The notes: generated from the letters alone by a model not told the origin. DNA of 64,000 nucleotides from Patescibacteria group bacterium (GCA_018971685.1 JAGXAG010000001.1:90396-154395); one strand, 5' to 3'. Positions 13,198-50,214 are shown, counted from the first letter of the stretch. Numbers and translations: made by a program.

Positions 13198-13806
13198 ATG
13201 TTTACCATCATTTCAATCGTAATATTAATAATGTCCGTGATTATTCATGAACTGGCGCATGGATTCACGGCGAACGCGCTTGGCGATCCGACGGCGCGGC
13301 TTTCGGGCAGGCTGACTTTGAATCCGATAGCGCATATCGATCCGGTAGGGTCAATACTGGTGCCGCTGGTGACTTCGCTTTTCGGTTTTACTTTCGGCTG
13401 GGCGAAACCGGTGCCGTACAATCCGTACAACATCAAGAATAAGAGAACCGGCGAATTTCTGATCGCGGCGGCGGGACCGGCTTCGAATTTGTTGATCGCG
13501 ATTATCTTCGGCACTTTCATCCGTTTTGCGACCGCCGGCGCTACGACGATCACGCCTTTCATCGAGATTTCATCCTACATTGTTGTCATCAACATTATTC
13601 TGGCGATTTTCAATCTCATTCCTCTGCCGCCATTGGACGGTTCGAAACTTCTCTTTGCCATCCTTCCGAACCAATACGGCCGCACCCGCATGGTCCTCGA
13701 AGCCTATGCGCCGGTCTTCGTGCTCATTGTTGTCTTTTTCTTGTGGCAAATCGTGGCACCGGTTATTCCGGTCTTATTCAGGTTGTTAACGGGCATAGGG
13801 TTTTGA
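13198..13806 (+). CDS. Site-2 protease family (peptidase M50) membrane metalloprotease
   Basis: HELAHG HExxH motif in a TM helix, multiple TM segments, LDGSKLL; start taken at the internal MFTIISI because the upstream part of the ORF is non-coding-like. Confidence 0.8.
   Translation: MFTIISIVILIMSVIIHELAHGFTANALGDPTARLSGRLTLNPIAHIDPVGSILVPLVTSLFGFTFGWAKPVPYNPYNIKNKRTGEFLIAAAGPASNLLIAIIFGTFIRFATAGATTITPFIEISSYIVVINIILAIFNLIPLPPLDGSKLLFAILPNQYGRTRMVLEAYAPVFVLIVVFFLWQIVAPVIPVLFRLLTGIGF
13709..13795. repeat. Direct repeat copy 1 (3' end of the M50 gene)
   Basis: gccggtcttcgtgctcattgt...ggcaccggttattccg repeated at 14918-15003 at roughly 90% identity. Confidence 0.85.
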
Positions 13807-13875
13807 GCGATAATATAGCCATGGATGATGTCTTTGATGCCCAAGAATGGGACAGAGAGGTAGAGGATCCTTATC

Positions 13876-14085
13876 GTGCCCGATAACGATTATGAAGATT
13901 CGGAGCCGGACCGGATAGTATTGAAGTCAATGGCTAAGCTCATTAGTAATAATTATCCACAAGTGCCGAAAGAGAGTATCATAGGCCATTGCGAAGTGAA
14001 CAAGAATACGACATGTCCGGGAGAACGATTTTTACCGAGCTTAACCGATAAAGGGTGGAAGGAAAAATTACTGTCTCTCATTTGA
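13876..14085 (+). pseudogene. C-terminal remnant of an N-acetylmuramoyl-L-alanine amidase (Amidase_2/PGRP)
   Basis: IIGHCEV...TTCPGERF matches the Amidase_2 C-terminus; only about 69 aa are present, with no upstream domain. Confidence 0.55.
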
Positions 14086-14225
14086 ATACGATTATATGTC
14101 AATCTCCAAACTGAAGAACTACGCAATTTATTCCTCGATCTATTGACCTGATCGCGTGGGGTACGCCGGTTTTCCGGTGCACCATTTATGTTTGTCAAAA
14201 TGTCGTCGCGTGGTATCATTGCGTT

Positions 14226-14612
14226 ATGGATGAAGTCGTAAAATATTGGCTGGAAACGGCCGCTCATGATTATGAGACCATGGAAGCATTGCTAAAGACG
14301 GCCAGATATTCCGACGCCTTATTTTTCGGCCATATCATTCTGGAGAAGGCTTTTAAAGCTCTGATAGTTAAAAGGACAAAAGAACACGCGCCGTATGTGC
14401 ACAACCTATTGCAATTACAAGCTATTTCCGGCATACCGTTGAACGAGGACGACCTCAACTTGTTGGTCGAAGTGAACGATTTTAACATCCGGGCCAGATA
14501 TCCGGAGCAGAAATTGGCGTTTTACAAACAAGCCACCGAGGAATTCACGGGTGGATACATGACGCGAATCACGAATCTGTACAAAAAGCTATGTCAAACG
14601 GTGAAATCGTAA
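14226..14612 (+). CDS. HEPN domain protein (toxin component of a HEPN/MNT pair)
   Basis: HEPN-like helical protein with an R(X)4-6H-like IRARYPEQ region; overlaps the downstream MNT gene. Confidence 0.65.
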   Translation: MDEVVKYWLETAAHDYETMEALLKTARYSDALFFGHIILEKAFKALIVKRTKEHAPYVHNLLQLQAISGIPLNEDDLNLLVEVNDFNIRARYPEQKLAFYKQATEEFTGGYMTRITNLYKKLCQTVKS

Positions 14613-14905
14613 ACATTGTGAAGAAATACGGAGAAGGCCTGAGGAAAAACGGCATCGATTTCCAGGCGCTCTACCTTTTCGGTTCTTACGCCAAAGGGAA
14701 CAATAAAGATTGGAGCGACATAGATGTGGCGGTAGTGTCGGATTATCTTGACGATAAATACGATGAAGGCAGGTTTCTCCTCTGGAAGCTGACTCGCGCC
14801 GTGGATCTGCGTATAGAGCCGCACGGGTTCGCGCTTTCCGCATGGAACGATCCCAATAACCCGATGGCCCATGAGATAAAGAGCACTGGATTGAAAGTGG
14901 CATAG
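14591..14905 (+). CDS. Minimal nucleotidyltransferase (MNT) partner of the HEPN protein
   Basis: LFGSYAKG...SDIDVAV nucleotidyltransferase motif (GS...DxD). Confidence 0.75.
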   Translation: MSNGEIVNIVKKYGEGLRKNGIDFQALYLFGSYAKGNNKDWSDIDVAVVSDYLDDKYDEGRFLLWKLTRAVDLRIEPHGFALSAWNDPNNPMAHEIKSTGLKVA

Positions 14906-14917
14906 TATCAATCCAAA

Positions 14918-15003
14918 AAAGATCATTCGCCGGTCTTCGTGCTCATTGTCGTTTTCTTCTTGTGGCAGATCGTGGCACCGGTTATTCCGTTCGTTTTCAG
15001 GCT
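14918..15003. repeat. Direct repeat copy 2 (duplicate of the M50 3' end)
   Basis: Encodes PVFVLIVVFFLWQIVAPVIPFVFRLFTGTSF*, against the M50 C-terminus ...PVIPVLFRLLTGIGF*. Confidence 0.85.
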
Positions 15004-15086
15004 GTTTACCGGAACCAGTTTCTAATTTCCTTGACTTTTTGATGTTGAAGGCTATATTTAAGCCGAACCCTCAACAAAGGAGCTCG

Positions 15087-31031: not shown

Positions 31032-31040
31032 AGTAATCGC

Positions 31041-31079
31041 GGTAAAACCACCACGAGGTCCGACCTCGTGGTGGTTTTT
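31041..31079 (+). terminator. Rho-independent terminator
   Basis: aaaaccaccacgaggtc-cga-gacctcgtggtggttttta, a 13-bp perfect stem plus T-tract. Confidence 0.65.
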
Positions 31080-31216
31080 ATGTTGACAAATAAGGTGTTT
31101 GCACATTTTGTACCCAAAGGTGCGAAAAAACGGTAAAAAACGCACCTTAAGGTACGAAATATGCTAATTTTAAGAAAAAATTTATAGAATAATTGAATTG
31201 ATGCTATAATCAACGC

Positions 31217-32737
31217 ATGAAAATATTCAAGCGTTTTCGGTTGAGAACTTATGTAATCGCTGGAATAATAATTCTGGTAATCGTATTCATAGCCGTGGCA
31301 AGCCGCGGATCCTCGGTATCGAACATAGAGTCCGCCGCCGTGACCAGGGGCAATATCGTCGAGCAAGTGAGCGTAACAGGCAAAGTGTCGCCGATCGACA
31401 AAGCCGACCTCGCTTTCGAGAAAAGCGGCGTAATTTCCAAAATCTTTGTGAAAGTCGGCGACAGCGTCAAGGCCGGCGACAAAATCGCGGCGCTGGACAG
31501 CGCCGGCGATCTCGCCAATCTGCAGTCGGCGCAAGCCAAACTCGACGATATGACCAGGACTTTGCGTCCCGAAGAATTGAGCGCCGAGCAGGCTAAAGTT
31601 GACTCGGCGAAAACTGCGCTGGATAACGCCAAAACCGACGCCTTGAACGCCGCGCGCGACGGATATGTCGAGACGGAAGGCGCAGTGGTAAATTATGCCG
31701 ACGCGTTCTTTACCAACCCACAAAGCGCCAATCCGACCATAAAAGTGACGACGCAGTCGCAGACTCAGGAAAATAGCATCGACGCCGAGCGCGTGGCCGT
31801 CACGGACGAATTGGCGGCGTGGCAAGCGGATTTGGCCGCGGCGACTTCGACGGATCGGGCCGCGTATTATCTATCGCGCGCGCACGGCCACCTTTCGATG
31901 ATCAAGAATTTCATGAACGATCTTTCCGGCATCGCGAACTATTTGAGCCCGGGCAATTCCGGGCTGGTGCAATCGGCAATCGATGCATATGTCGGCGCCA
32001 TGAATTCGGCGCAATCGGCGCTGAATCAGGCGATTTCCTCGGTAACAACGGCGGAAGCGGAACTGCAAAACGCTTCCGCGGCATACGACGAGGCGCGCAG
32101 CAATTTCATCCTGAAAAACGCCGGTTCTTCGCCGGAAGCGATCGCGGCACAGCAAGCTTCGGTGGCGTATTACCAGTCCGCTCTGGATAACGATGTCCTG
32201 GTTTCGCCGATCGACGGATTGGTTACGCGCGTCGATCCGAGCGATGGTGAATTTGTCTCGGCCGGGCAATCGGCGTTCTCGGTGCAGAGTTACGGCGATT
32301 ACAAGGTGGAAGCTTATGTGCCGGAAGCGGACATCGCCAAAGTGGCCTTGAATAATACCGCGGCGATCACGCTCGACGCTTACGGTCCGGATGTCAACTT
32401 TCCGGCGGTAGTTACCGCCATTGATCCGGCCGAAACGGTTCTGGAAGGCGTGCCCACTTACAAAGTCACCATGCATTTTACCCAAAAAGACGATCGCGTC
32501 CGCTCGGGCATGACGGCCAATACGGAAATCTTGACTCACGAACACGACAATGTGCTTACGATCCCCACGCGCGCCGTGGTCGACAATAGCGGCCAGAAAT
32601 CCGTGCGCGTCCTCGACGCCGACGGCAAAACTTACCGATCGGTGCCGGTCGTCGCCGGTCTGAAAGGGTCGGACGGCATGACGGAGATTATTTCGGGGCT
32701 TACGGAAGGGCAAAAGGTGGTGACTTATGTGAAGTAA
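31217..32737 (+). CDS. HlyD/MacA-like efflux periplasmic adaptor protein
   Basis: N-terminal TM anchor, biotin-lipoyl-like VKAGDKIAALD, long coiled coil, beta-barrel C-terminus. Confidence 0.8.
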   Translation: MKIFKRFRLRTYVIAGIIILVIVFIAVASRGSSVSNIESAAVTRGNIVEQVSVTGKVSPIDKADLAFEKSGVISKIFVKVGDSVKAGDKIAALDSAGDLANLQSAQAKLDDMTRTLRPEELSAEQAKVDSAKTALDNAKTDALNAARDGYVETEGAVVNYADAFFTNPQSANPTIKVTTQSQTQENSIDAERVAVTDELAAWQADLAAATSTDRAAYYLSRAHGHLSMIKNFMNDLSGIANYLSPGNSGLVQSAIDAYVGAMNSAQSALNQAISSVTTAEAELQNASAAYDEARSNFILKNAGSSPEAIAAQQASVAYYQSALDNDVLVSPIDGLVTRVDPSDGEFVSAGQSAFSVQSYGDYKVEAYVPEADIAKVALNNTAAITLDAYGPDVNFPAVVTAIDPAETVLEGVPTYKVTMHFTQKDDRVRSGMTANTEILTHEHDNVLTIPTRAVVDNSGQKSVRVLDADGKTYRSVPVVAGLKGSDGMTEIISGLTEGQKVVTYVK

Positions 32738-32770
32738 TGGATGACTTGTTTGCGTGCCTGGTGTAAATGC

Positions 32771-33862
32771 ATGAAAGATTTATTCACGCGGTCAAAATCG
32801 AATCCGATCTTGAAACCCAATCCGGATAACGGCTGGGAGTCATTGAAAGTTTATAATCCCGGTGCCATTTTCCATGAAGGCAAATATCATCTCTTTTACC
32901 GCGCGGTCGGCAAAAGCGAGGATGCTCACTCCGCCATAGGCTATGCGACTTCCGTTGACGGCGAACATTTCGATCGATATCCAAAGCCGATACTTGACCG
33001 TGAAGAAGGCAACCCCCTTGAACTCCGCGGCTTGGAAGATCCCAGAATCACGAAAATCGGAGACACATTTTATATGGCATATGCGGCATATGATGGTAAG
33101 TTACCCAGACTTTGCACTGCAGAGTCAAAAGATTTGGCAATCTGGCATAAACAGGGGATTGCGTTTAAAAATTTTGACTTTATAAGTACCGATGGCAGAT
33201 TTTGGGGATTAAAAGGAGAAGGCAAATTTAGAGTGAACGCGGCGACGAAAAAGCAAAAAAATAACTGGAGCAAATCAGGCGCTATCTTTCCAGAAAAGAT
33301 TAACAATAAATACTGGATGATTTTTAATGATCCTACGATTTGGATAGCGAATTCGGACGATGCTATAAATTGGAACCTTGCCGTCAAAGAACCGTTGATT
33401 TACTCACGAACCAGTACTGATTTATTTGACAATTTGTATGTCGAAGTCGGTCCGCCGCCGATTAAAACCAATAGAGGGTGGTTTGTTATGTATCATGGGA
33501 TTAATGAATTACATCAGTATCAATTGGGATTTGTGCTTTTAGAACTTAATAATCCGTTGAAAGTCATCTATCGTTCCAGTGGACCTATATTCGGACCAAG
33601 AGAAGAATATGAACTTGGTGGCATGGTCGATATTGTACCAGGCGTTATGGATTTGATTTGGGAAGGTGATGAACGAAAAATCAAGCTACATCTGAAAGAA
33701 GCGGAGGCGAAAGGTTTCATGCCGCAGGTCGCATTTGTTCCGGCGGCCGTGCTAGTCGATGGTAATCTGCGCTTATTCTACGGCGCCGGCGATCAATACA
33801 TCTGCACCGCAACCGCACGAATCGACGATATTCTAGCGACGATTGATTCGGTTCAGGCTTGA
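32771..33862 (+). CDS. GH130-like glycosidase/phosphorylase (beta-propeller)
   Basis: NPILKP...VYNPGAIFHEGKYHLFYRA...GYATSVDG pattern of GH130/DUF377-type proteins. Confidence 0.55.
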   Translation: MKDLFTRSKSNPILKPNPDNGWESLKVYNPGAIFHEGKYHLFYRAVGKSEDAHSAIGYATSVDGEHFDRYPKPILDREEGNPLELRGLEDPRITKIGDTFYMAYAAYDGKLPRLCTAESKDLAIWHKQGIAFKNFDFISTDGRFWGLKGEGKFRVNAATKKQKNNWSKSGAIFPEKINNKYWMIFNDPTIWIANSDDAINWNLAVKEPLIYSRTSTDLFDNLYVEVGPPPIKTNRGWFVMYHGINELHQYQLGFVLLELNNPLKVIYRSSGPIFGPREEYELGGMVDIVPGVMDLIWEGDERKIKLHLKEAEAKGFMPQVAFVPAAVLVDGNLRLFYGAGDQYICTATARIDDILATIDSVQA

Positions 33863-33887
33863 CTACTAAGCACATGGCGATATAATT

Positions 33888-34103
33888 GTGGTTATGAGTA
33901 AAATAACCATATCAAAAACCGAATATTCAAACCTAAAGAAACAGTCGAAAGCTTATAGAGTTGTCATGGCCAGATTATTCGAGTTGTTGATAAAAGATCC
34001 CGTCAAATCAGTCGTAGACGATTTTCGTAAAATCGGCCTGTATTCTGACGGATTCCTGTCCGATCTGGAAGCGGGATTGCGCAAATCTTCCTACGGTGGT
34101 TAA
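33888..34103 (+). CDS. Putative antitoxin partner of the YoeB-like toxin
   Basis: Small ORF 8 nt upstream of the toxin gene; no strong motif. Confidence 0.3.
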   Translation: MVMSKITISKTEYSNLKKQSKAYRVVMARLFELLIKDPVKSVVDDFRKIGLYSDGFLSDLEAGLRKSSYGG

Positions 34104-34111
34104 TCAACGGC

Positions 34112-34363
34112 ATGAAAATTGAACCTCTTCGGAGAGATCTTCTTGAATATTTGAACAGCCACAAGCTTGCCTCCAAATGGAAGAAGTCCGCAAGATTATT
34201 TGAGACTAATGTGCGCCATCCGTCACTTCATGTGGAATTGCTGGAGCCGAAATGGCACGGCATTTATTCTTTCAGGATTGATAAAAAATATCGCGCCCTG
34301 TTTTTCATAGTAGACGGAGCTTCTGCGGAAGTATTTCAGATTACCAATCATTACAAGAAATAA
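34112..34363 (+). CDS. YoeB/Txe-like (RelE/ParE superfamily) toxin
   Basis: C-terminal LEPKWHGIYSFRIDKKYRALFFIVDG...VFQITNHY resembles YoeB E.LK..G.WSRRI...RLVY..D....I...YHY. Confidence 0.5.
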   Translation: MKIEPLRRDLLEYLNSHKLASKWKKSARLFETNVRHPSLHVELLEPKWHGIYSFRIDKKYRALFFIVDGASAEVFQITNHYKK

Positions 34364-34406
34364 AATCGATGAAGACGGGCAATAAATTCAAGGGACTGAA
34401 AACAAA

Positions 34407-35126
34407 ATGGATATTATCGTAGCAAAAGACTTGCGAAAGTCATACAAGGATGGTGAGGCCGAGACGGTCGCTTTGGACGGCGTTTCATTCACGGTGAGGA
34501 AAGGGGAGTTCATGGCGATCATGGGGCCGTCGGGGAGCGGCAAGTCGACACTGTTGCATGTTTTGGGATTACTCGACGAGCCGACGAGCGGGCACTACGG
34601 CTTCAACGGCAAGGATACTTCCGAATATTCGCGTGACGAGTTGGCGGATCTGCGCAATCGGGAAGTTGGCTTCGTTTTCCAGGCGTTCAATCTGCTACCC
34701 AGGACTTCGGTGCTCGAGAATGTCAAACTGCCGCTTTATTATTCAGGCATCGATGAGAGCGAATGGGAAAATCTCGCCAAAAAAGCGGTTGAAGATGTCG
34801 GGCTCGGGCAGCGCATGTATCACGAACAGGCCGAACTTTCCGGCGGCGAAAAACAGAGAGTCGCCATTGCGCGGGCGCTCGTCACCGACCCGGAAGTGAT
34901 ATTTGCCGACGAGCCGACCGGCAACCTCGATTCCAAATCGGGCAAGAATGTCATGTCGATCATTCAGCACCTGAATGAAGAGCACGGCAAAACAATCGTC
35001 CTTATCACCCACGAAACTTCCACGGCCGAACATTCCGAGCGCATTATCCGGCTTCTGGACGGGAAAATTGAGAGCGATGAGAAGGTCGCAAAACGCTTGA
35101 CGGCGGATGATGAGTTTGTGAAATGA
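34407..35126 (+). CDS. ABC transporter ATP-binding protein (MacB/LolD family)
   Basis: Walker [11 protein letters not shown]-loop, signature [15 protein letters not shown], Walker [12 protein letters not shown]. Confidence 0.9.
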
Positions 35127-35197
35127 AGCGCAGGTGCCTGTTTTGTCGATCACGGTGAGCCAGTCAAATTGATTCAAGTAAAACCGAAAATTTCCAA

Positions 35198-36436
35198 ATG
35201 ACTTACAAACATATATTCAATACGGCGATCAGAGGACTGTCGACCAACCGGTCGCGCTCTTTCCTGACGATTTTCGGCATAGTGATCGGCATCACGGCGA
35301 TCATGCTGGTGGTGTCTTTGGGCGCGGGCGCGCAGGATCTGATACTCGGCCAGGTGCAGGGTCTGGGCACGAATACCATAGCCGTTATTCCCGGCAGGGA
35401 ACCGACCGGACCGTCCGATGTGACCGCCCTATACAGCGACTCGCTCAAGGACAAGGACATAACCGCGCTCACCAATAAAGGCAATGTGCCGTATTTGAAA
35501 AGCATCATGCCCGTGGTCTTCGGCGCCGGCGCTTCGTCTTACGGTTCCAATACCTATCAAGTGACCATATTCGGCGGCACCGATCTCGTCGCCGAAGTAT
35601 TCGATCTGCATCCGTCCGAAGGCCAGTTTTTTGACGCCAGCGACGTGCCGTCCCGTTCAAATGTGGCGGTCATCGGTTCCGATGTCGTCGATCACTTGTT
35701 CGACGGGCAAGATCCTGTAGGGCAAAATATCAAAGTAAAGAGCCGGAACCTGCGCGTGGTGGGCGTATTGCCCAAGTCCGGCGGCGGCACTCTCTTCAAT
35801 TTCGATTCTATGGTCATAATGCCGTATACTACGGCGCAGGATTACATTCTGGGTCAGAAATATTTCAGCCGCATAATCATACAAACCGAGACGGATGCGG
35901 AAGTGGCGGTTACGGCCGAGGACATCAAGCTCACCCTACGGGATTCTCACGGGATCACCGATCCGACCAAGGACGACTTTACGGTCCAAACACAGCAGGA
36001 TCTGGCCAACAGGCTGGGAACGATCACTTCGGCGCTCACCTGGTTCCTGGTGGCGGTGGCATCAATCGCGCTTTTTGTCGGCGGCGTCGGCATCATGAAT
36101 ATCATGCTGGTGGCGGTGACGGAACGCACGCGGGAGATCGGCCTTCGGAAAGCGCTGGGCGCGACGGATCGCGATATTCTGTCGCAATTCTTGCTGGAAG
36201 CGGTCTTGCTCACGGCGATCGGCGGAGCGATCGGGATATTCTTGGGGACGGTGTTAGCGTTCGTGATCTCGGTCGGCCTTTCGAAAGGCCTGGGCGTGAA
36301 CTGGCAGTATGTTTTCCCTTGGGGCGGCGCGCTCTTGGGTTTCGGCGTGTCGGCGCTCGTCGGTCTTGTTTTCGGCGGCTATCCGGCCAGCCAAGCGAGC
36401 AAAAAGAGTCCGATCGAGGCGTTACGGTATGAGTGA
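35198..36436 (+). CDS. ABC transporter permease, FtsX-like (MacB-type)
   Basis: MacB_PCD-like periplasmic domain plus the C-terminal four-TM FtsX domain. Confidence 0.85.
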   Translation: MTYKHIFNTAIRGLSTNRSRSFLTIFGIVIGITAIMLVVSLGAGAQDLILGQVQGLGTNTIAVIPGREPTGPSDVTALYSDSLKDKDITALTNKGNVPYLKSIMPVVFGAGASSYGSNTYQVTIFGGTDLVAEVFDLHPSEGQFFDASDVPSRSNVAVIGSDVVDHLFDGQDPVGQNIKVKSRNLRVVGVLPKSGGGTLFNFDSMVIMPYTTAQDYILGQKYFSRIIIQTETDAEVAVTAEDIKLTLRDSHGITDPTKDDFTVQTQQDLANRLGTITSALTWFLVAVASIALFVGGVGIMNIMLVAVTERTREIGLRKALGATDRDILSQFLLEAVLLTAIGGAIGIFLGTVLAFVISVGLSKGLGVNWQYVFPWGGALLGFGVSALVGLVFGGYPASQASKKSPIEALRYE

Positions 36437-36437
36437 G
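36375..36437. repeat. Left copy of the ~63-bp direct repeat (permease 3' end) bounding the DGR island
   Basis: ggcggctatccggccagccaagcgagcaaaaagagtccgatcga... repeated at 42331-42393 (44 nt identical, then 5 mismatches); both encode GGYPASQASKKSPIEALRYE*. Confidence 0.9.
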
Positions 36438-36552
36438 GCATTGTTCCAAGTTTTCTCTTTCATATAAAATAATAACGGCGATCTTAAAGACGCTTAAATT
36501 ATCCACAGGTAAATCTTAAATTCGGCGTTGTTTTTTTGTTATAATTTGATTC

Positions 36553-37572
36553 ATGAAGAGAGCGATTGTCATGATTTCTTTCGGTTCGGTATTGATTCTT
36601 ACCCCGTTTTTTGAGGTTATGGCGGCTGGGTATGGAGATACCGGTTGGGGGATAACGGCTACGGTTACCAATGCATGGCAAAGCGTAGTATGTACGGTGG
36701 GATCGTGGATGTCGATAGCCCCGGCGTATTGCGGTTATGAAGAGAAAGCGGCCAACAAACCGACAGTACCAAAGACACCGTCATTAAACACCGTCATTTC
36801 CCGTGATTCAATCGGCTCAAGGCAAATCGCCGAACCGGTTCAAACATCACGGTTTTTGTCACCGACGGTGCCGTCTGTATCAGGTAAGGCCGATATCCAA
36901 TCGATAGTGAACGAAGCCGTAGCTGTGGCTTTATCTAAACTCCAGATCCCCGCCAACCAATCGCCAAGTCCCGCCGATATCACCGGTCGCGCATCGACTT
37001 CCCCAACCAATTATGCCAATACTATTCCACCGGACATATACCGTTTTGTTTCCGATCAGGCCTCATCGAACGGTTACAGTGCAGGTCAAGCCGTATCGAA
37101 CAGTGCATCGGCCATAACCTCCGCATATACTTCCGCCATATCAGACGCCGTTACCGGCGGGCTTACCGCCTTCGATGGTTCGACTCTGCATGCGGGTACA
37201 AGCACCTTAGGCCAACTTACGGCAGGATCAACCACACTCTCAAGCCTAAATGTATCCGGAAATGCTGCCGTAACAGGCGCTCTCACTGTCGGTTCTCTGG
37301 TTTCGGGCGGTCAGACCATAGGAGGTAACTTCGGTGTTAGTGGCACGACCACCCTAGCTACTACAACGGTTAGCAATCTATCGGCTTCAACTATGAGTAT
37401 TGGTTCATTGAGCGGTATACTATATGGGAACAATGGGATTGTCGGGACTACCAGTTTGTCCAGTCTCACTTCAAACATTATATCCACACAAGGCAATACT
37501 ATAACTTCAAATATAAACGGTGTACAGGCTAGCGCCTTATTGCCGTATGCGTCGGCTTCGAGCGACGGTTAG
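36553..37572 (+). CDS. N-terminal part of the DGR target protein (signal peptide plus S/T-rich repeat region), ended by an in-frame TAG
   Basis: Signal peptide MKRAIVMISFGSVLILTPFFEVMAAG; the TAGSTTLSSLNVSG repeat continues as TAGSTTLSSLSVTG in the next ORF, in the same frame. Confidence 0.5.
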   Translation: MKRAIVMISFGSVLILTPFFEVMAAGYGDTGWGITATVTNAWQSVVCTVGSWMSIAPAYCGYEEKAANKPTVPKTPSLNTVISRDSIGSRQIAEPVQTSRFLSPTVPSVSGKADIQSIVNEAVAVALSKLQIPANQSPSPADITGRASTSPTNYANTIPPDIYRFVSDQASSNGYSAGQAVSNSASAITSAYTSAISDAVTGGLTAFDGSTLHAGTSTLGQLTAGSTTLSSLNVSGNAAVTGALTVGSLVSGGQTIGGNFGVSGTTTLATTTVSNLSASTMSIGSLSGILYGNNGIVGTTSLSSLTSNIISTQGNTITSNINGVQASALLPYASASSDG

Positions 37573-37623
37573 GTTTCCACCACCACCCAGTCATTTTCCG
37601 GTAACAAGAATTTCTCAGGATCA

Positions 37624-38457
37624 TTGACGGCAGGTTCGACCACACTATCATCGCTGTCAGTCACAGGTTCGACATCTTTGGCGTCGCTTGCAGTCAGCGG
37701 CGTTACGGCATTGTCAGGTCCTCTTACGGTCTCTCTCGGTAGCCTGTCCGGGTCTGATACTTATTATGATATGAGTAAAATAGCAAATTACAATCAAATG
37801 TCCATAAGCTCCGGACAGATACAACTGTCTCTGGCGTGGACTTGTGGAAGTCACACTCTGGTAGGCCCAGACGGTTTGACCTATGGTACTGTCGTCGGGG
37901 CTGACGGCAACTGCTGGCTGGACAGGAACCTAGGCGCTACGGAAGTAGCCACAGCCTACAACGATGCCAATGCATATGGTTACTACTATCAATGGGGACG
38001 CGGTATGGATGGCCACCAGATATCTACCAGTTTGACCACAAATACTCTATCCTCCACTGACCAGCCGGGCAACAGCAATTTCATATTGGCGCCAAGCTCT
38101 CCTTATGACTGGCGTAGTCCGCAGAATAACAATCTATGGCAAGGAGCGTCGGGAGTAAACAATCCTTGTCCGAATGGATTCCGCTTGCCGACTAACCAGG
38201 AATGGTCGAACCTGGTATCGGCGGCGGGAATTACCGATTACTCAACAGCTTTCAGTTCCTCATTGAAACTAACACTAGCCGGCGACCGCGACTACTCCTC
38301 CGGTAGTCTCAGCCCTCAGGGAGGTTTCGGTCTCTACTGGTCGAGCTCAGTCTCCGGTGCGAATGCTTTCTCCCTGTACTTCAGCTCTTCCGGGGTTAGC
38401 CCTTCGTACTCGTACTACCGGGCCTACGGCTTCTCGGTTCGTTGTATAAAGAATTGA
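37624..38457 (+). CDS. DGR variable (target) protein with a C-type-lectin/FGE-like fold and C-terminal VR
   Basis: TTG start in frame with the upstream ORF; C-terminal ...YWSSSVSGANAFSLYFSSSGVSPSYSYYRAYGFSVRCIKN is a variable-repeat copy of the TR. Confidence 0.75.
   Translation: MTAGSTTLSSLSVTGSTSLASLAVSGVTALSGPLTVSLGSLSGSDTYYDMSKIANYNQMSISSGQIQLSLAWTCGSHTLVGPDGLTYGTVVGADGNCWLDRNLGATEVATAYNDANAYGYYYQWGRGMDGHQISTSLTTNTLSSTDQPGNSNFILAPSSPYDWRSPQNNNLWQGASGVNNPCPNGFRLPTNQEWSNLVSAAGITDYSTAFSSSLKLTLAGDRDYSSGSLSPQGGFGLYWSSSVSGANAFSLYFSSSGVSPSYSYYRAYGFSVRCIKN
38277..38451 (+). repeat. DGR variable repeat (VR)
   Basis: About 170 nt homologous to the TR; 19 mismatches, every one at a TR adenine; 3' ends identical (ggcttctcggttcgttgtataaag). 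Confidence 0.85.
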
Positions 38458-38486
38458 CAATTTATCAATTTGACAATTAAAAAATT

Positions 38487-39209
38487 ATGGCGCTCTACTA
38501 CACATTGCCGATATACAAATCTAGTTACAAACTTGCTTTCTTGTTGTTCGATGCCTCTACCCATTTTGCCAGAGAGTATAAATATACTGTTGGTCAGCAA
38601 TTGAAAGACGAAGCGATGAAATTGGTTAAAAATGTGTATAGAGCCAATAAAGCTATTGATAAAAATTGTGCCATAAATGAGGCGAGAGAAAATGCGGAAA
38701 TGATACGGCTGATGGTCCGTCTGATGAAGGATTTCAATCAGCTTAGCCTGAAAAAATTCCTGGAAATCAATCTGTGCATAGAAGATGTGTCCAAGCAACT
38801 CACTTCTTGGGGAAAGAGCTTTAGGACAAAATTATCAATACCGCCTGAATCGTCTGTAGCCAGAGCCCAGACGAGCGTGCGGAGCAAATTCAATGGCCCC
38901 CTTGCCTCATCAGGCAAGGAATATCGTCCGGATCACGGATGTGTTTCGCCGTCCCGTACTCATGGGGAAGGTGCGACAAATACAGAGGCCATAATCACAG
39001 TAGCCGGCTACCGCGACAACTCCTCCGGTAGTCTCAACAATCAGGGAGGTAACGGTAACTACTGGTCGAGCTCAGTCTCCGGTACGAATGCTTTCAACCT
39101 GAACTTCAACTCTTCCGGGGTTAACCCTTCGAACACGAACAACCGGGCCAACGGCTTCTCGGTTCGTTGTATAAAGCATTTGCAAATAGCGTATGAAAAA
39201 GTCAATTAA
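38487..39209 (+). CDS. avd: Avd-like accessory variability determinant (first ~115 aa) in an ORF that reads through the TR
   Basis: Helical, basic N-terminal part (about 115 aa) at the position of Avd; the rest of the ORF is TR sequence in an open frame. Confidence 0.5.
   Translation: MALYYTLPIYKSSYKLAFLLFDASTHFAREYKYTVGQQLKDEAMKLVKNVYRANKAIDKNCAINEARENAEMIRLMVRLMKDFNQLSLKKFLEINLCIEDVSKQLTSWGKSFRTKLSIPPESSVARAQTSVRSKFNGPLASSGKEYRPDHGCVSPSRTHGEGATNTEAIITVAGYRDNSSGSLNNQGGNGNYWSSSVSGTNAFNLNFNSSGVNPSNTNNRANGFSVRCIKHLQIAYEKVN
39002..39176 (+). repeat. DGR template repeat (TR)
   Basis: Adenine-rich (AAC codons: NNQGGNGNYW...NLNFN...NTNNRAN) counterpart of the VR, immediately upstream of the RT. 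Confidence 0.85.
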
Positions 39210-40377
39210 CGACAACCCGCAACTACTTTTGAACTTGTTCAAGGCATATTATGATGCCCGTAGGCACAAGGGTTTGTCTGCCAATGTTCTGGCTTTTTCG
39301 GCTGATTATGAGAGCAAATTATTCAAACTCTATGAAGATATTCTAGATCGAAGATATGTCATAGGGCCAAGCGTATGCTTCATCGTCAATCGGCCGGTAA
39401 AGCGAGAAATATTCGCCGCCGACTTTCGCGACAGGGTTGTTCATCATCTAATATTCAATTATCTCAATCCTATAGTTGAGAGAGATTTTATAAAGGATAG
39501 TTATAGTTGCAGATTGGGGAAAGGCACTTCTTATGGCGTGCGCAGAGTTAATCATTTTCTGCATTCTTGCTCAGAGAACTATACTCACGAGTGTTGGATC
39601 ATGAAACTGGATATACGAGGTTACTTTATGTCTATGAATAAAGATATTCTATACGGCAAGGTAAAAGAAGTCGTCGATAAGGCGAGAAATATATCTTTTG
39701 ACAAGGAACTCCTCATGTATCTGGTGAATAAAGTTGTATACCACGATCCTGTCACTAATTGTCGTATAAAAGGCGACAGATCAGACTGGGTGGGATTGCC
39801 AAAATCAAAAAGTTTGTTTTTCGCCGAAAAGAACCGAGGATTTCCTATAGGGAATCTCACTAGTCAACTATTCGGGAATATATACATGAATAGGTTCGAC
39901 CATATAATAAAGGAAGATCACAATTTTAAGCATTATGGCCGATATGTTGATGATATGATCTTCGTGCATAAAGACAAGGGGACATTGGCGTCCACGATCC
40001 CGATCGTAAAAAAGTATCTTTTTGAAGAACTTGGGTTGGAATTACATACCAAAAAGATATATTTACAGCCGTCTGCTGTCGGTGTTAGCTTTTTGGGGGC
40101 TTACATAAAGCGATGGTGCCAATATGTCGGAAAAAAGACCAAGACTAATTGTTATACTAGAATCAGTAGGTGGAATTCAGAAGTTAATAAAAACAGCTAC
40201 GACAAGTTTTTATCTTCGATGAATTCATATCTTGGATTTATGAGCCAATACGATACTTATAGGCTTCGCCAGAAAGTCATGTCAAAATTAAGCCGCCAGA
40301 TTGTATCGAAACTGATCATTTCCAAAGATTTTTCTTCGATAAAAATAAATTCTGCAGCGAATACATTACGAACATGA
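39193..40377 (+). CDS. DGR reverse transcriptase
   Basis: RT domain with the IGNLTSQ motif characteristic of DGR RTs and YVDDMIF (YxDD) in the catalytic box; adjacent TR/VR. Confidence 0.9.
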   Translation: MKKSINDNPQLLLNLFKAYYDARRHKGLSANVLAFSADYESKLFKLYEDILDRRYVIGPSVCFIVNRPVKREIFAADFRDRVVHHLIFNYLNPIVERDFIKDSYSCRLGKGTSYGVRRVNHFLHSCSENYTHECWIMKLDIRGYFMSMNKDILYGKVKEVVDKARNISFDKELLMYLVNKVVYHDPVTNCRIKGDRSDWVGLPKSKSLFFAEKNRGFPIGNLTSQLFGNIYMNRFDHIIKEDHNFKHYGRYVDDMIFVHKDKGTLASTIPIVKKYLFEELGLELHTKKIYLQPSAVGVSFLGAYIKRWCQYVGKKTKTNCYTRISRWNSEVNKNSYDKFLSSMNSYLGFMSQYDTYRLRQKVMSKLSRQIVSKLIISKDFSSIKINSAANTLRT

Positions 40378-42326
40378 GAAACAAGCCATCAACAATTCGA
40401 GCGATTGTCACGACGGTTATTATACCAGCAATAGGATTTGCAATACTTTTAGGTATGACGCCAGCCATGGTTATGGCTTCCGCGACCTACTTTTCTTCCG
40501 GTACTGTCAGCTCGACTAACTTACTATCAGGCAGCACAGCATCGTCCATAAACGACTTCTATTACAACTTGTCATCTCTTCCGGGCAACTCAAGTGTTAC
40601 GGTCCAATTCAGCCAAGACGGAACAAATTGGTATTCGGCCGCCGGTACGCTCAACGCTTCCACGAGTATTTCTACCATCGGCGGGGCTACGATCGATCTG
40701 TCAGCTTTGCACTGGTCCGGTTCGTCTTTCTACTATAAGTTTACTTTCTATGCCACTACCGATCAAACCGGCACGCCGGTCATAAACGGAGTCAGAGTCG
40801 ATTATTCGACATCCGGTTCGAATGGCGGCATATTCGCCATAAATAACGGCGGCCACATAGCGGTGGGTACGACTTCTGCCCTGTCGACTCTCGACATAGC
40901 GGGCGGTACAGCCATAGGGACTTATGCCGGCACCGCCGCCGCTCCCAATAACAGTTTGATATTGAGCGGTTTTTTGGGCGTGGGTACTTCTACTCCATCC
41001 AGCAAACTTACCGTGGCGGGAGACGGTTATCTATCCGGCAATCTGACGGTCAACGGCTCGCTCAGCGTGGCTGGTTCTCTATTCCAGATCAACTCTAACG
41101 GAACTTTTACGGCGTCGAGCACGCAAGCTTCGGCGGCTACATCCACCGTATACGGCAATCTCAATGTTACCGGCAACCTGCACGGCCAGACTATTACTTC
41201 GGGCGATCTTGTATTCGCGAACGCTTTCCGGTTCACTGAAGCGCGGCTCGACGGTTCACCACAAGGTATTTTGCTCAAGAATCAGTATGGTTCGACAACT
41301 TTGTCTGTAGATGAGAACGGCAATCTAACCGTTTTGGGCGACATATGTTCCAATGGGAATGTTTCATGTTGGGGCAGATCCATAGTCGATCTGAACAGCG
41401 GCCTAGCTTCTCTGGCTTCATCTACCATGCTTGATATATCCGCCAATGCCGCTTCTACTACGAGGTCGATGTCCGAACTATCTTCAGATATCGACAAGAT
41501 CGACTGGTCTTTGAATCGTGTGTCTTCGAGGTTAGATGCACTGGCTTCATCCAGTCTGACTATGTCCGCTCTGGCCTCGGCCACCGATGCCATGGCCTCT
41601 TCGGCCGGATCGATCTTGGCTTCTTCGACATCGTTCATCCAGAGCGTATCCCAAGCCGTTAACAGCGCCATCCAGTCCACAGGTCAATGGCTTGCGAACC
41701 AAATAACGGTTGCCAAGGGTATCTTTACCGAGCTTACAGCCGGCAAGGCTGACATTCAGACGGCCAATATTCAAACGCTCTGTATCGGCCAGACTTGCGT
41801 GTCAGAGAGCCAATTCAAGGCGATGTTGGCGCACGAGAATGTGACGCCGGTCCAACCATCCCCGATGTCGGCGCAGAGCAGTTCGACGAACATTACGACT
41901 GATACTGCGACAGCTCCCGCTGCCACGACCGCTTCTACGACAATGCCTGCGGCTGTGTCGGCAGGTACCTCTATAATTGCAACTTCATCCACTGACCGGG
42001 CAGATCAGACAGCGACCACTTCTGTAGGCGTTGTTCCCGCGGCTTCTACGACATCAGCCACGATCATGGTTTCGGAAGCTTCCGGAACATCGACTGCCGC
42101 CGCGGTATCAGAGACTTCAACCACTTCAACGGCAACGGTTTATACAACTCTGCCGATCATGAGTTCGACCACTACGGTATCTGCCCCGGTTGAACCGGCG
42201 GCATCGTCCGTTTCCGAATCGTCGACCACGGCGGTCGACCGTGTTTCCGCGGCTCCCACACCAATCACAGATATGACTACCACCGGCACCGCTCCTGCGC
42301 AGGCGTCAACTTCAGCGGCCCACTAA
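40374..42326 (+). CDS. Large S/T-rich surface protein (fibre-like), co-transcribed with the RT
   Basis: N-terminal TM anchor; G/S/T-rich beta-repeat region (LTVNGSLSVAGS...); T/S/A-rich C-terminus; the ATG overlaps the RT stop (ATGA). Confidence 0.6.
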   Translation: MRNKPSTIRAIVTTVIIPAIGFAILLGMTPAMVMASATYFSSGTVSSTNLLSGSTASSINDFYYNLSSLPGNSSVTVQFSQDGTNWYSAAGTLNASTSISTIGGATIDLSALHWSGSSFYYKFTFYATTDQTGTPVINGVRVDYSTSGSNGGIFAINNGGHIAVGTTSALSTLDIAGGTAIGTYAGTAAAPNNSLILSGFLGVGTSTPSSKLTVAGDGYLSGNLTVNGSLSVAGSLFQINSNGTFTASSTQASAATSTVYGNLNVTGNLHGQTITSGDLVFANAFRFTEARLDGSPQGILLKNQYGSTTLSVDENGNLTVLGDICSNGNVSCWGRSIVDLNSGLASLASSTMLDISANAASTTRSMSELSSDIDKIDWSLNRVSSRLDALASSSLTMSALASATDAMASSAGSILASSTSFIQSVSQAVNSAIQSTGQWLANQITVAKGIFTELTAGKADIQTANIQTLCIGQTCVSESQFKAMLAHENVTPVQPSPMSAQSSSTNITTDTATAPAATTASTTMPAAVSAGTSIIATSSTDRADQTATTSVGVVPAASTTSATIMVSEASGTSTAAAVSETSTTSTATVYTTLPIMSSTTTVSAPVEPAASSVSESSTTAVDRVSAAPTPITDMTTTGTAPAQASTSAAH

Positions 42327-42330
42327 GAGT

Positions 42331-42393
42331 GGCGGCGGCTATCCGGCCAGCCAAGCGAGCAAAAAGAGTCCGATCGAAGCCCTCCGGTATGAG
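42331..42393. repeat. Right copy of the direct repeat bounding the DGR island
   Basis: See 36375-36437. Confidence 0.9.
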
Positions 42394-42682
42394 TGATTGA
42401 AATTTCGCGCGATGTCAGCCGATAAACCATTCGTGGGCCGGCACGATCTCTATTTTTGCGCCATCGAGTTCAATAACCTCTTTCCAGAAATTTATTATGT
42501 CTCTTATTTTTTCGTCGTTTTTTGTGGTCATGTTTAAGTCAAGTATATGTTACTAAATACTATAAAATAAGTCAAGTATACATGACTTATTTGTAAATCT
42601 CTCAAGAAATCCAAGTATTAAGCCATTTTTTGTCATTTTTTTATCGCAATTAATTAACAGTGACTATTATTGTGCGCATCAA

Positions 42683-43522
42683 TCAGTTCACCGAAGGCAA
42701 TACGATCTTGAAAGTCGACCCTTTGCCGGCGCCGGGAGAAGAGACCTCGATCCGGCCGCGGTGGCGGCGGACGATGGAATCGGCCAAATAGAGGCCGACG
42801 CCGAAACCTTCGGTATCAGCCGATACGGCGTTTTTGCCGCGGAAGAATTTCGAAAACAGGCGGGGGAATTCTTCCGGAGAAATGCCGATGCCTTGGTCCG
42901 AGACAGTGATGGCCGCTTTTGCGCCAATTTTGGAAACATCGACGCGCACACTTTTGCCGGGCGGAGAGTAAAGGCGGGCATTGTCAAAAAGGACCTGCAG
43001 GGCGAATTCCACGCGCGCCTTATCGACTTTGACATAAATCGGTTCGCGGTCGCATTCGACGGAAAAGAAAATATTTTTTTCATGAAAAGAATCTTTCGCC
43101 AAACCGGCGACGCGGCGCGTGAGTTCGCAGAGGTCGGTCTTTTCGAACAAATAAGCCGCCCGGGCCAGGCCGTCTGAGTCGGCCAGTTCGACAAGCGTAC
43201 CGGTCAGATCTATCAATTGGCGATTTGCTTTCGCGATCTGGCCCAAGCTCTCCAGTTTGTACGGATCCTGTTCCGCGGAGGCCATGCTCTCGATGAGCCA
43301 TTTGACCTGCGAAAGCGGTGTCTGGAATTTGTGGGCGATGATGGTGATAAACTCCTCTTTTAAGTCCTCATTTTTCCTCGAGGAGAGATTTAGCATGTAA
43401 ACAAGAAGAAAAATGAGCGCAATCGCCGCGACGAATAACACCATGACCAATGTCGAATGGTCGGCTATATAGCTTTCGATGGACAAGACCGCTTCGGCGC
43501 TCATATTTTCATTATACAGCAA
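42683..43522 (-). CDS. Sensor histidine kinase (membrane-anchored, orphan)
   Basis: H-box IIAHKFQTPLSQ; HATPase_c G-boxes GFGVGLYLADSIVRRHRG...GKGSTF. Confidence 0.8.
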   Translation of the reverse strand: MLYNENMSAEAVLSIESYIADHSTLVMVLFVAAIALIFLLVYMLNLSSRKNEDLKEEFITIIAHKFQTPLSQVKWLIESMASAEQDPYKLESLGQIAKANRQLIDLTGTLVELADSDGLARAAYLFEKTDLCELTRRVAGLAKDSFHEKNIFFSVECDREPIYVKVDKARVEFALQVLFDNARLYSPPGKSVRVDVSKIGAKAAITVSDQGIGISPEEFPRLFSKFFRGKNAVSADTEGFGVGLYLADSIVRRHRGRIEVSSPGAGKGSTFKIVLPSVN

Positions 43523-49198: not shown

Positions 49199-49246
49199 GA
49201 GCAACTTTTTTATCAAAGGCGAAGTAATATATGTATTATAAAGGTA

Positions 49247-49843
49247 ATGACAAAAACAAACATGGCAAACAAAAATAAAGAAATATTGAAGATCGCAATA
49301 ATTATAGGTAGCACCAGGCCGGGCAGATTTGGCGACAAGCCGGCCAAGTGGATATACGAAGAGGCGAAAAGAACGGACGGGGTAGAGGCGGAATTGCTGG
49401 ATTTGCGGGATTATCCGATGCCTTTTTACGCCGAAGACCATTCGTTCAGCATGAATCCGGCGGTTTCCGACCAAACGGCGGAGAAATGGCAGGCGAAAAT
49501 CGGCGCGGCGGACGCTTTTGTCATCGTCACGCCGGAATACAACCACGGCCCCTCGGCAGTCTTGAAGAACGCGCTCGACTATGCGTACCGCGAATGGAAC
49601 GACAAGCCGGTTGCTTTCGTCGCTTATGGCAGTGTGGGCGGCGCCCGCGCGGTGGAACAATTGCGGCTGGTCGCGATCGAACTGCAAATGGCGCCGATCC
49701 GAAACGCGGTGCACATTCCGGCGCCGTGGTTCTTGGTTGACGGCAAAGGCGATCTGAAGCCGAATGCCCTGGATCCATTCAAGGACGCGGCAAAAAATAT
49801 GCTGGAACAACTGGTAAGATGGGGGAGGGTGATGAAAAGATAG
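49247..49843 (+). CDS. NAD(P)H-dependent FMN reductase (flavodoxin-like, SsuE/YieF family)
   Basis: IAIIIGSTRPGRF... and VIVTPEYNHGPSAVLKNALDY motifs. Confidence 0.8.
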   Translation: MTKTNMANKNKEILKIAIIIGSTRPGRFGDKPAKWIYEEAKRTDGVEAELLDLRDYPMPFYAEDHSFSMNPAVSDQTAEKWQAKIGAADAFVIVTPEYNHGPSAVLKNALDYAYREWNDKPVAFVAYGSVGGARAVEQLRLVAIELQMAPIRNAVHIPAPWFLVDGKGDLKPNALDPFKDAAKNMLEQLVRWGRVMKR

Positions 49844-50214
49844 ATTCAGAGCTAGATAAAGGGTGGGTACAAATTGTACATACCCTTAGCATAAACACTG
49901 CAGGAGGGACGCTGAAAGTGCTTTGTGCCAATACCGAGGGCATATTCCGCATCATTCAATCTATTCCATCGCCCAAGGCTGAGCCGTTCAAACGCTGGCT
50001 GGCGAGGGTTGGCTACGAGCGCATTCAGGAGATTGAAGACCCGGAGCTGGCCACCAAGCGCACCCGCGCCCTTTATAAAGCCAAGGGCTATGATGATGCC
50101 TGGATCGAGAAGCGCATGCGCGGTATTGCCGTTCGCGAAAAATTGACCGATGAGTGGCAGAAACGGGGGATTAGACTCTCAGGATTCGCGACCTATTGTC
50201 GTAAATTCAGTTGA
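49819..50214 (+). pseudogene. Remnant of a Bro-N/DinD-like (phage antirepressor-type) protein lacking its N-terminus
   Basis: SPKAEPFKRWLA resembles the Bro-N KPEAKxFKRWV motif; the first ~60 aa of the domain are missing; overlaps the end of the FMN reductase gene. Confidence 0.35.

Follow-up and report, generated by a model that had tools for sequence, protein, structure and literature searches.

Gene content of the permease locus

The window (the whole 64,000-nucleotide stretch of Patescibacteria DNA that was analysed) encodes a 412-aa MacB-type ABC permease whose 3' end is duplicated, with a 5.9-kb block, hereafter the island, between the two copies (Table 1). The block comprises a complete diversity-generating retroelement, or DGR (a target ORF with its variable repeat [VR], Avd, the template repeat [TR] and a reverse transcriptase [RT]) and a conserved 650-aa surface protein. 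Its left end is AT-rich and non-coding, and showed no similarity to the sequence after repeat copy 2. The first island ORF, encoding a 339-aa Ser/Thr-rich protein with no Pfam, PHROG or NCBIfam match, is in frame with the DGR target ORF, and a single TAG (37570–37572) lies between them.

Table 1 Features of the permease and M50 protease loci, in coordinates of the window.
Feature	Position	Strand	Basis
M50 repeat copy A, functional tail of the site-2/M50 protease gene	13709..13806	+	repeat comparison
M50 cargo: 69-aa ORF, HEPN (14226-14612), MNT nucleotidyltransferase (14591-14905)	13807..14927	+	Pfam HEPN, Polbeta, NTP_transf_2
M50 repeat copy B, relic M50 tail	14928..15025	+	81/98 nt match to copy A
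MacB-type ABC permease gene (412 aa), anchor with duplicated 3' end	35198..36436	+	Pfam MacB_PCD 2.5e-43, FtsX 3.1e-22; NCBIfam MacB-like
Direct repeat copy 1, functional permease tail	36373..36436	+	repeat comparison; rare TTA codon
AT-rich non-coding left end of insert, 5' of first island ORF	36437..36552	.	sequence inspection
339-aa Ser/Thr-rich protein, N-terminal hydrophobic segment	36553..37572	+	ORF reading
DGR target ORF (277 aa), C-terminal FISUMP/Fib_succ_major (C-type-lectin-like) domain	37624..38457	+	Pfam 4.5e-10; TIGR02145 2.3e-14
VR, 3' end of target	38272..38460	+	189-nt repeat, 87% identical to TR
Avd accessory protein	38487..38849	+	bAvd 1.1e-13; PHROG Avd 8.6e-17
RT-7-like structured RNA between Avd and TR	38843..38999	+	Rfam RF03028, 44 bits, E 7.7e-8, below gathering score
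TR	38997..39185	+	189-nt pair with VR
DGR reverse transcriptase (394 aa)	39193..40377	+	RVT_1 1.6e-14; PHROG RT 3.3e-91
650-aa surface-type protein	40374..42326	+	tblastn, N-terminal part conserved
Direct repeat copy 2, non-coding permease-tail relic	42333..42396	+	repeat comparison; codon usage
Orphan spacer before histidine kinase	42397..42682	.	absent in L086 (gap 42 nt)
Histidine kinase, convergent with permease, right flank common to empty-site relatives	42683..43522	-	HATPase_c 5.3e-22

The RT is of the DGR type and adjoins the TR, an Avd gene is present, and the VR forms the end of the FISUMP-domain ORF, at the 3' end of the target. Mismatches between TR and VR are adenine-biased, 19 of the 24 falling at TR adenines (A-to-N). 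In ordinary DGR operation, RT and Avd would copy the TR RNA with adenine errors and the copy would replace the VR, which would alter the lectin-like C-terminus of the target. The Avd match in NCBIfam lay below its cutoff; the Avd ORF runs on through the TR to 39209. RT homologues in related loci are flanked by Avd and FISUMP-type targets. The N-terminal ~200 aa of the 650-aa protein are conserved directly 3' of the RT in related CPR DGR cassettes by tblastn (L096, L100, L107, L108, L110, L116, L117, L128 and L132/133), and the protein had no family match in Pfam, PHROG or NCBIfam and none in PDB.

The composition of the block departs from that of its surroundings. GC3 was 0.42–0.55 in all five island genes, compared with 0.62–0.72 in core genes and 0.65–0.71 in the flanking permease, ABC and kinase genes.

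The duplicated permease tail and its flanks

Copy 1 forms the genuine 3' end of the MacB_PCD- and FtsX-containing permease gene. Copy 2 begins 6 nt past the stop of the last island gene, lies in a different frame and ends on its own TGA. The two are identical at 60 of 64 bases, with no mismatch in the first 45 nt (CGGCGGCTATCC...GATCGA); the four mismatches, at repeat positions 46, 49, 50 and 52, all fall within the last 19 nt (p about 0.006). They give the codon differences GAG/GAA, GCG/GCC and TTA/CTC, the last of which is a two-step change. Because all are synonymous, both copies encode GGYPASQASKKSPIEALRYE followed by a stop, and differences of this kind only, TTA/CTC included, are as expected for two functional orthologous tails. 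The longest identical run shared with the closest orthologous permease genes (74.5% nucleotide identity) was only 17–20 nt, so conservation does not explain the 45 identical bases. A 44-nt core of the repeat occurs exactly twice in the window with up to 3 mismatches allowed, and none of 100 shuffles had two matches. The repeat is real, specific and recent.

Codon usage gives the two tails a polarity. Copy 1 carries a TTA codon, which accounts for 4% of the Leu codons of core genes, and the copy 2 codons match core usage about nine times better than the copy 1 codons, a comparison based on three codons. Given how seldom core genes use TTA, the insert plausibly brought the functional tail with it. 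The last 19 nt of copy 1 (GGCGTTACGGTATGAGTGA) would then be donor-derived, and copy 2 would probably be the displaced original tail of the permease.

In L086–L089, whose permeases are 87% identical at the amino acid level, the permease is followed by 42 nt, a minus-strand histidine kinase and rpsS, with no island and with the locus otherwise colinear from rplB to rpsS. In L176 (permease 85%), a convergent gene lies 64 nt after the permease, also with no island. These relatives are ~75% identical in DNA and establish the absence of the island in relatives rather than a precise same-species empty site. The histidine kinase to the right of the island is 54% identical in amino acids to the L086 kinase at the same position. 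The orphan spacer in front of it contains two 20-nt repeats at 42535–42587 and a 38-aa ORF (42415–42531, minus strand) that had no homologues. Neither a donor genome nor a same-species empty site was found, and the reconstruction of the event therefore relies on one haplotype.

A reading made earlier from the sequence alone (the sequence-only reading) had described the recurrence of the permease 3' end after the last island gene, and this recurrence stands; its limits, given there as 42331–42393 (~63 nt, 44 identical), are corrected to 42333–42396 (64 nt, the first 45 identical). That reading also took everything between the copies to be a discrete insertion, for which relatives with the permease directly before the histidine kinase or rpsS were to be sought. 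Such relatives exist (L086–L089), and together with L176 they mark the segment between the copies as a lineage-specific insertion. The further claim that the insertion regenerated the permease C-terminus agrees with the codon usage of copy 1.

A second tail duplication and the search for recombinases

A second scar of the same form lies 22 kb from the permease scar in the same window. Here the tail of an M50 protease gene is duplicated around a cargo of three ORFs that includes a HEPN–MNT toxin-antitoxin pair. The codon differences between its copies comprise nine synonymous and five non-synonymous, conservative changes, the synonymous ones being denser toward the stop; copy B ends on its own stop (TAA vs TGA), and both tails resemble the tails of orthologues. 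Divergence is of the synonymous type at both loci (4/4 at the permease, nine at the M50 gene), as for one tail from a diverged functional orthologue. In both cases, the homology stops exactly at the stop codon, i.e. at the boundary between gene and cargo. The cargo is absent from this site in relatives, in which the M50 protease is single-copy. A stop-anchored scan of the whole window returned only the permease and M50 cases, both 3' of an intact gene.

No integrase or recombinase domain was found in the island ORFs with Pfam, PHROGs or NCBIfam. Gene lists and ORF scans, which annotate most of the window, likewise showed neither a recombinase nor a transposase. The island thus has direct repeats and no recombination genes inside, as integrase-less islands bounded by direct repeats do; direct repeats at a gene end and a restored gene are also what a site-specific element leaves. 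The island ends carry no inverted repeat, no transposase is present and the duplication is 64 nt long and imperfect, none of which is the pattern of a transposon. Scanning 87 related permease loci for a second tail revealed only tandem paralogues, and about 2 Mb of related loci did not contain the repeat core. Among 5.8 billion proteins there was no near relative of the island, the best RT being 59–61% identical. The lack of a visible integrase, remarked on in the sequence-only reading, is therefore upheld across the island ORFs, and the att-site integrative element that it implied is not: the site is not reused, the core does not recur, the best RT match is distant and the second tail duplication has a different repeat and a different cargo.

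Origin of the block

With moderate confidence, we favour horizontal acquisition of the 5.9-kb DGR block by homology-anchored host recombination at the permease 3' end, with no element-encoded integrase. Two different repeats with no integrase point to such recombination, either a single crossover or an event like homology-facilitated illegitimate recombination (HFIR), and the second duplication, with its own repeat and cargo, argues for a general homology-driven process and against a dedicated att/integrase system. The permease scar looks like a recombination scar rather than the border of a self-mobile element. The donor would have been a related organism whose orthologous permease already had the cassette behind it, so that the incoming DNA would also have brought the last codons of that permease. 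A circularised fragment may have entered by a single, Campbell-type crossover. Alternatively, in an HFIR-like event after DNA uptake, one end may have been joined by homologous recombination and the other illegitimately; ComEC, the DNA-uptake channel, is encoded in the window. By either route, the resident gene would be joined to the donor tail and the cargo, directly behind the permease stop codon, and the resident tail would be left behind the cargo as the 64-nt non-coding relic.

Both routes have precedents. Integration through gene-end homology with no site-specific enzyme has been described as Campbell-type single crossover or HFIR, the latter in competent bacteria, and in lacZ experiments circles carrying a gene end integrated by single crossover with 109–950 bp of that end duplicated around the insert (PMC3240628). 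Those events were obtained in the laboratory with plasmids, and classical HFIR usually deletes recipient DNA rather than duplicating it, which counts against this route (PMC3240628); here, the duplications are shorter (64 and 98 nt) and the donor would be a diverged natural genome. Judged from the pattern of mismatches, each route has a difficulty: a pure single crossover would need a mosaic history or later gene conversion, as the tails show no difference over 45 nt but four in the 19 that follow, and an HFIR-like event would have kept only 19 nt of donor tail.

CPR DGRs have been described as cell-encoded, and those of the cellular 'clade 2' share with this locus the RT, Avd, an adenine-specific TR/VR pair and a VR in a C-terminal lectin-like (FISUMP) domain (bioRxiv 10.1101/2020.04.01.020958). 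Related CPR cassettes also have the same order of target, Avd, TR, RT and surface protein. The present locus differs in that the limits of the cassette can be drawn around a single insertion, with relatives empty at the site and the tail of a host gene present twice, and in that the target reading frame is broken by an in-frame TAG. One CPR DGR cassette, acquired as a single block, is thereby bounded to the nucleotide, and the locus offers a concrete integrase-free entry route, in which recombination is anchored at the 3' end of a conserved neighbour gene. The toxin-antitoxin scar suggests that accessory cargo of other kinds reaches this reduced genome in the same way. As nothing here is mechanistically new for bacteria generally, the locus is of value chiefly as a documented case and for the method it suggests, and less as a new concept. 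Stop-anchored "tail relics" can be searched for with little effort and, in uncultivated bacteria, could point to genes gained recently and to the direction in which they were transferred.

Compared with homology-anchored host recombination, an att-site element has the lower probability. A CIME-like or H47-like non-autonomous integrative element, with the 64-nt copies as attL and attR and a recombinase elsewhere in the genome or on a helper element, would have integrated site-specifically into the permease 3' end and restored it. This reading, which we consider unlikely, would explain why the limits of the insert coincide with the repeats, why these have an identical 45-nt core and a diverged outer part, why the gene end is restored and why the site is empty in relatives; integrase-less islands moved by host functions are documented (PMC3191183, PMC5426353). 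The H47 genomic island of E. coli is also small, with imperfect direct repeats containing segments of identity and no integrase or excisionase, but experiments have shown it to excise and integrate, and its att sequences are found widely across strains (PMC3191183, PMC5426353), whereas the repeat of the present block is the 3' end of a protein-coding gene and, among the loci scanned, occurs in no other genome. Prophages, ICEs and islands that target gene 3' ends (of tRNA, tmRNA and protein genes, including dusA-specific islands; PMC4482086) similarly insert at a gene end, supply a replacement end and leave direct repeats, but have a cognate integrase beside att and reuse the site across many genomes, neither of which was found here. 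Against such an element stand the missing recombinase in the island and annotated window parts, the unused site in the 87 permease loci, the lack of a related island above about 60% RT identity, and the distance of 6 nt between the last gene and copy 2, which leaves no non-coding arm there. One site-specific enzyme would also not explain a second scar of different sequence.

A bolder version, to which we give little credence, is that Patescibacteria DGR cassettes are discrete mobile modules that pass from genome to genome by docking on the 3' end of a conserved gene through a short gene-tail mimic. The repeats would then be working attachment sites for a trans-acting or unrecognised recombination activity, possibly linked to RT/Avd or the 650-aa protein, and HEPN–MNT would be a second cargo of this mobilisation system.

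It is also improbable, somewhat more so, that copy 2 is the remnant of a second, tandem permease homogenised by gene conversion, the DGR having replaced the rest, so that the insertion did not create the repeat. Permease pairs are common in more distant Patescibacteria, and their tails can be alike: those in L009 share at least 85 identical nt, followed by only synonymous differences in the last 16 nt, which is the pattern of copies 1 and 2, and those in L059 share 36 nt. However, all sampled relatives with 57–87% identical permeases have one permease at the locus (single in L001–L008, L086–L093, L176, L177 and the P0008 contig), pairs occurring only at ≤55% identity. A second such event would be needed for the single-copy M50 protease, and the relic shows no decay.

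Mobility driven by the RT, in which a read-through transcript from the permease tail was copied and the cDNA integrated by homology as in DGR retrohoming, is very improbable. The island encodes no polymerase- or recombination-type enzyme other than the RT, and cDNA integration through short homology is part of DGR homing. However, the repeat has no similarity to the TR/VR or its 3' end, the HEPN–MNT insertion has the same scar with no RT, and we know of no DGR RT that copies kilobase-long templates.

That a chimeric join of strain variants produced a false duplication is scarcely credible even for sequence from metagenome-assembled genomes, because the island structure is identical in the independent assemblies GCA_028865255.1 and GCA_028870795.1 and every repeat junction, k-mer by k-mer, was found in Logan unitigs of a separate run (SRR32006840). 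With k=31, a break at the 44-nt repeat is expected, and the unitigs end precisely there. The island is present in all four contigs of the species, and a fourth assembly, GCA_028865955.1, covers the M50 locus.

The permease-tail repeat and the island between its copies

The last 64 nt of the gene for the 412-aa MacB_PCD+FtsX permease recurred, by sequence comparison, at the far side of the DGR island, and the coordinates are listed in the table below. The two copies were identical over the first 45 nt and showed four differences in the remaining 19 nt; the differing codons (GAG/GAA, GCG/GCC and TTA/CTC) were all synonymous, and TGA ended both. Copy 1 is the true end of the permease gene, and copy 2 starts 6 nt beyond the last island gene's stop codon and is in another frame. 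The limits of the homology were sharp, with CGGCGGC at the left and the stop codon at the right. The repeat described in the sequence-only reading, there given as ~63 bp, was thus confirmed, and it is not general within the window: its 44-nt core occurred exactly twice even with three mismatches allowed, no shuffle gave two matches, and the core was absent from ~2 Mb of related loci. Similarity to relatives did not polarize the two tails, because at 74.5% identity synonymous substitutions have reached saturation.

An orphan spacer of 286 nt (42397-42682) separates copy 2 from the kinase gene; the gap in the related locus L086 is 42 nt. The spacer contains a 38-aa ORF on the reverse strand (42415-42531) preceded by two 20-nt repeats, at 42535-42554 and 42568-42587, of which one is nearly palindromic as read. 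The ORF was rejected as a truncated gene, since a search of 1.84 billion representative proteins found no homologue.

Features of the two tail-duplication loci (window coordinates)
Feature	Position	Remark
Permease tail, copy 1	36373-36436	3' end of permease gene
End of putative donor tail and left end of island		GATCGAGGCGTTACGGTATGAGTGAGGCATTGTTCC
339-aa Ser/Thr-rich ORF	36553-37572	First island gene; hydrophobic N-terminus
277-aa DGR target ORF	37624-38457	C-terminal FISUMP/Fib_succ_major domain
Variable repeat (VR)	38272-38460	3' end of target gene
Avd	38487 onward
Template repeat (TR)	38997-39185	189 nt; paired with VR
DGR-type RT	39193-40377
650-aa ORF	40374-42326
Permease tail, copy 2	42333-42396	Relic tail
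End of putative resident tail and right flank		GATCGAAGCCCTCCGGTATGAGTGATTGAAATTTCG
M50 protease tail, first copy	13709-13806
69-aa ORF and HEPN-MNT toxin-antitoxin pair	13807-14927	Cargo of the M50 case
M50 protease tail, second copy	14928-15025	1,219 nt downstream

The DGR belongs to the ordinary CPR type, with TR and VR 87% identical and 19 of 24 mismatches at TR adenines; what is new is the base-level limits of an acquired DGR module and a pair of tail-duplication scars. Related CPR DGR loci show the order target-Avd-TR-RT and then a protein homologous to the 650-aa protein over its N-terminal ~200 residues, which makes the island a conserved module and not a random gene set. Family and PDB searches gave no match for the 339-aa and 650-aa proteins. 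No integrase, transposase or resolvase domain was detected in any island ORF (Pfam, PHROGs, NCBIfam), and a repeat search found no terminal inverted repeats of the island.

The 650-aa protein may represent a conserved surface protein that accompanies DGRs and has gone unrecognised. Homologues of its N-terminal ~200 residues lie directly downstream of the RT in L096, L100, L107, L108, L110, L116, L117, L128 and L132/L133, and their C-terminal parts are highly variable (450 to >1,670 aa), some with Hint-like segments. A single in-frame TAG (37570-37572), the same in all assemblies, parts the 339-aa ORF, which has a signal-like N-terminus, from the 277-aa ORF, which carries the VR domain; the two share one frame, and the TAG could mean that the target gene is broken, that the stop is read through or that there really are two genes. 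Between Avd and TR, an Rfam RT-7 RNA match (38843-38999) scored 44 bits (E 7.7e-8), which falls short of the gathering score (116.8).

The locus in relatives

The clade carries its HlyD-ABC-permease operon within the ribosomal protein cluster, with rplB on one side and rpsS on the other, and the island is an insertion relative to every sampled relative. In L086-L089 (permease 87% identical at the amino acid level) the order is rplB, PKD surface protein, HlyD, GH125, ABC, permease, 42 nt, histidine kinase (reverse strand) and rpsS, colinear with the window apart from variable slots. The insertion proposed from the sequence alone is therefore supported by sites where the kinase follows the permease with no island between them, as an absence in relatives with 74.5% identical permease DNA rather than a same-species empty site. 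L176 (permease 85%) has a convergent gene 64 nt past the permease, and L090-L093 (permease 82%) have other short cargo or none ahead of rpsS. The longest identical permease runs against such relatives were 17-20 nt, so the 45-nt identity of the two tails is not due to conservation. GC3 was 0.42-0.55 in the five island genes; the permease, ABC and kinase genes had 0.65-0.71, and ribosomal and other core genes 0.62-0.72. The composition of the island agrees with a putative foreign origin.

The operon, together with surface-protein and kinase genes, occupies 29475-43522 inside the S10 ribosomal protein operon. Its position between rplB and rpsS is kept in L086-L093 (permeases 82-87% identical), and three slots vary: TIG versus PKD protein upstream; GH130 with two small ORFs (one weakly HigB-like) versus GH125 versus nothing between HlyD and ABC; and DGR versus a Laminin_G pilin-like gene versus nothing downstream.

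A second scar and the proposed origin of both

A window-wide repeat search and a stop-anchored peptide scan revealed only one further tail duplication, at a site-2/M50 protease gene. The M50 tails match at 81 of 98 nt; nine codon differences are synonymous and five non-synonymous, the stop codons differ, and the homology ends exactly at the stop, as in the permease case. Relatives with 81-82% identical M50 genes show the order L28-M50-small ORF-S12 without the HEPN-MNT cargo, and both M50 tails resemble genuine orthologue tails. The window thus holds two anchor genes, two unrelated repeats and two unrelated cargoes in one design with no recombinase seen, as expected of general homology-driven recombination and not of one site-specific enzyme.

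Divergence between the copies grows toward the stop in both cases, from 0/45 to 4/19 nt in the permease (p about 0.006) and from 5/62 in the first to 12/36 in the last nt of the M50 tail. This fits crossovers that would have taken place upstream of a distal tail linked to the cargo, at positions that varied. The cargo-adjoining tail bears TTA Leu codons in both cases, TTA making up 4% of core-gene Leu codons, a weak hint that the current tails may have arrived with the cargo.

We infer that DNA of a related lineage, with a permease tail and a DGR cassette, recombined with the resident permease via the common tail, and that the resident tail would have stayed behind the cargo. The route could have been a circularised fragment and a single crossover, or homologous recombination at one end and an illegitimate joint at the other, 64 nt upstream of the resident stop. 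Both routes have difficulties: the plain single-crossover model needs 45-nt identity of donor and resident tails, and in the HFIR-like version the donor tract left is just 19 nt. Single-crossover products with gene-end duplications of 109-950 bp are documented, as is HFIR in competent bacteria (PMC3240628). Classical HFIR deletes rather than duplicates, whereas the permease tail is duplicated here. ComEC is encoded within the window.

The evidence is against a site-specific mobile element. The sequence-only reading had likened the island to integrative elements that restore tRNA 3' ends, and this is not favoured, because gene lists and ORF scans covering most of the 64 kb contained no recombinase, the window has no tRNA or tmRNA as integration target, the tail core is not reused in the ~2 Mb of related loci, and the second scar has another repeat. 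Around related DGR cassettes no comparable scar was found; candidate repeats came from recurring domains of surface proteins, from Hint-domain repeats or, in L171, from an AT-rich motif of 28 nt present three times. In a search for a second island copy or a donor, the closest RT matches were 59-61% identical (JGI metagenome contigs; 5.8 billion proteins), and neither source gave another copy. Islands that lack an integrase and have imperfect repeats at their ends have been described (PMC3191183, PMC5426353). An att-type element mobilised in trans is an unlikely candidate.

Somewhat less probable is a relic of a tandem paralogue followed by gene conversion. Among 87 permease loci, a repeated tail occurred only where two permease paralogues stand in tandem, and L009 shows such a pattern within the family: its tandem permease 3' ends (DOAO01000006.1, 11100-12295) share at least 85 identical nt, with an N run at the border, and the last 16 nt show synonymous differences only, which indicates gene conversion between paralogue tails. 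In L059 the shared stretch is 36 nt. Against this explanation for the island, the permease stands alone in all relatives at 57-87% identity, and the same coincidence would have to be assumed for M50. RT-mediated mobilisation of the island is very improbable; it has no support, and no RT accompanies the HEPN-MNT scar.

In 1.97 Mb of other loci, a scan for tail relics recovered chiefly tandem permease paralogues and TR/VR pairs of DGRs; a match in L122 was probably spurious. In L066 (Planctomycetaceae UBA10511), a ~60-nt near-identical tail copy lies 1.36 kb downstream (reverse strand, 14490-14551 and 15850-15911), the two copies enclosing a 263-aa ORF; this may be an analogous scar outside Patescibacteria.

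Assembly support and other interruptions

The island and its repeats are present in the Patescibacteria MAG GCA_028865255.1 and in GCA_028870795.1 with 0-2 SNPs, and the Logan unitigs of SRR32006840 contain all repeat junctions, breaking at the repeat as a k=31 graph requires. An assembly artefact as the source of the repeats is thus extremely unlikely. The M50 locus is covered by a further assembly (GCA_028865955.1). A 5,975-nt Logan contig, considered as an island circle, is the unitig between the repeat copies at k=31 and does not point to a circular form. Exact-protein look-ups with the permease, the 650-aa protein and the kinase for an island-free contig of the same species gave island-bearing contigs only. 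The window and GCA_028870795.1 differ by just two SNPs over 22 kb (39867 and 48004), neither in the VR, and no DGR-driven variation was visible between assemblies.

Between rplE and rpsN, an inserted block at 47210-52154 holds a Pif1-type helicase, an FMN reductase, a Bro-N protein, a 76-aa ORF, a weakly AcrVA2-like 388-aa protein and a RhuM fragment; no direct repeats flanking it were found. The str/S10 gene cluster is interrupted a third time between EF-G and EF-Tu (18792-24000), by opposite-strand genes for a 979-aa Pel9A-like/PG-binding protein and a PMT glycosyltransferase.
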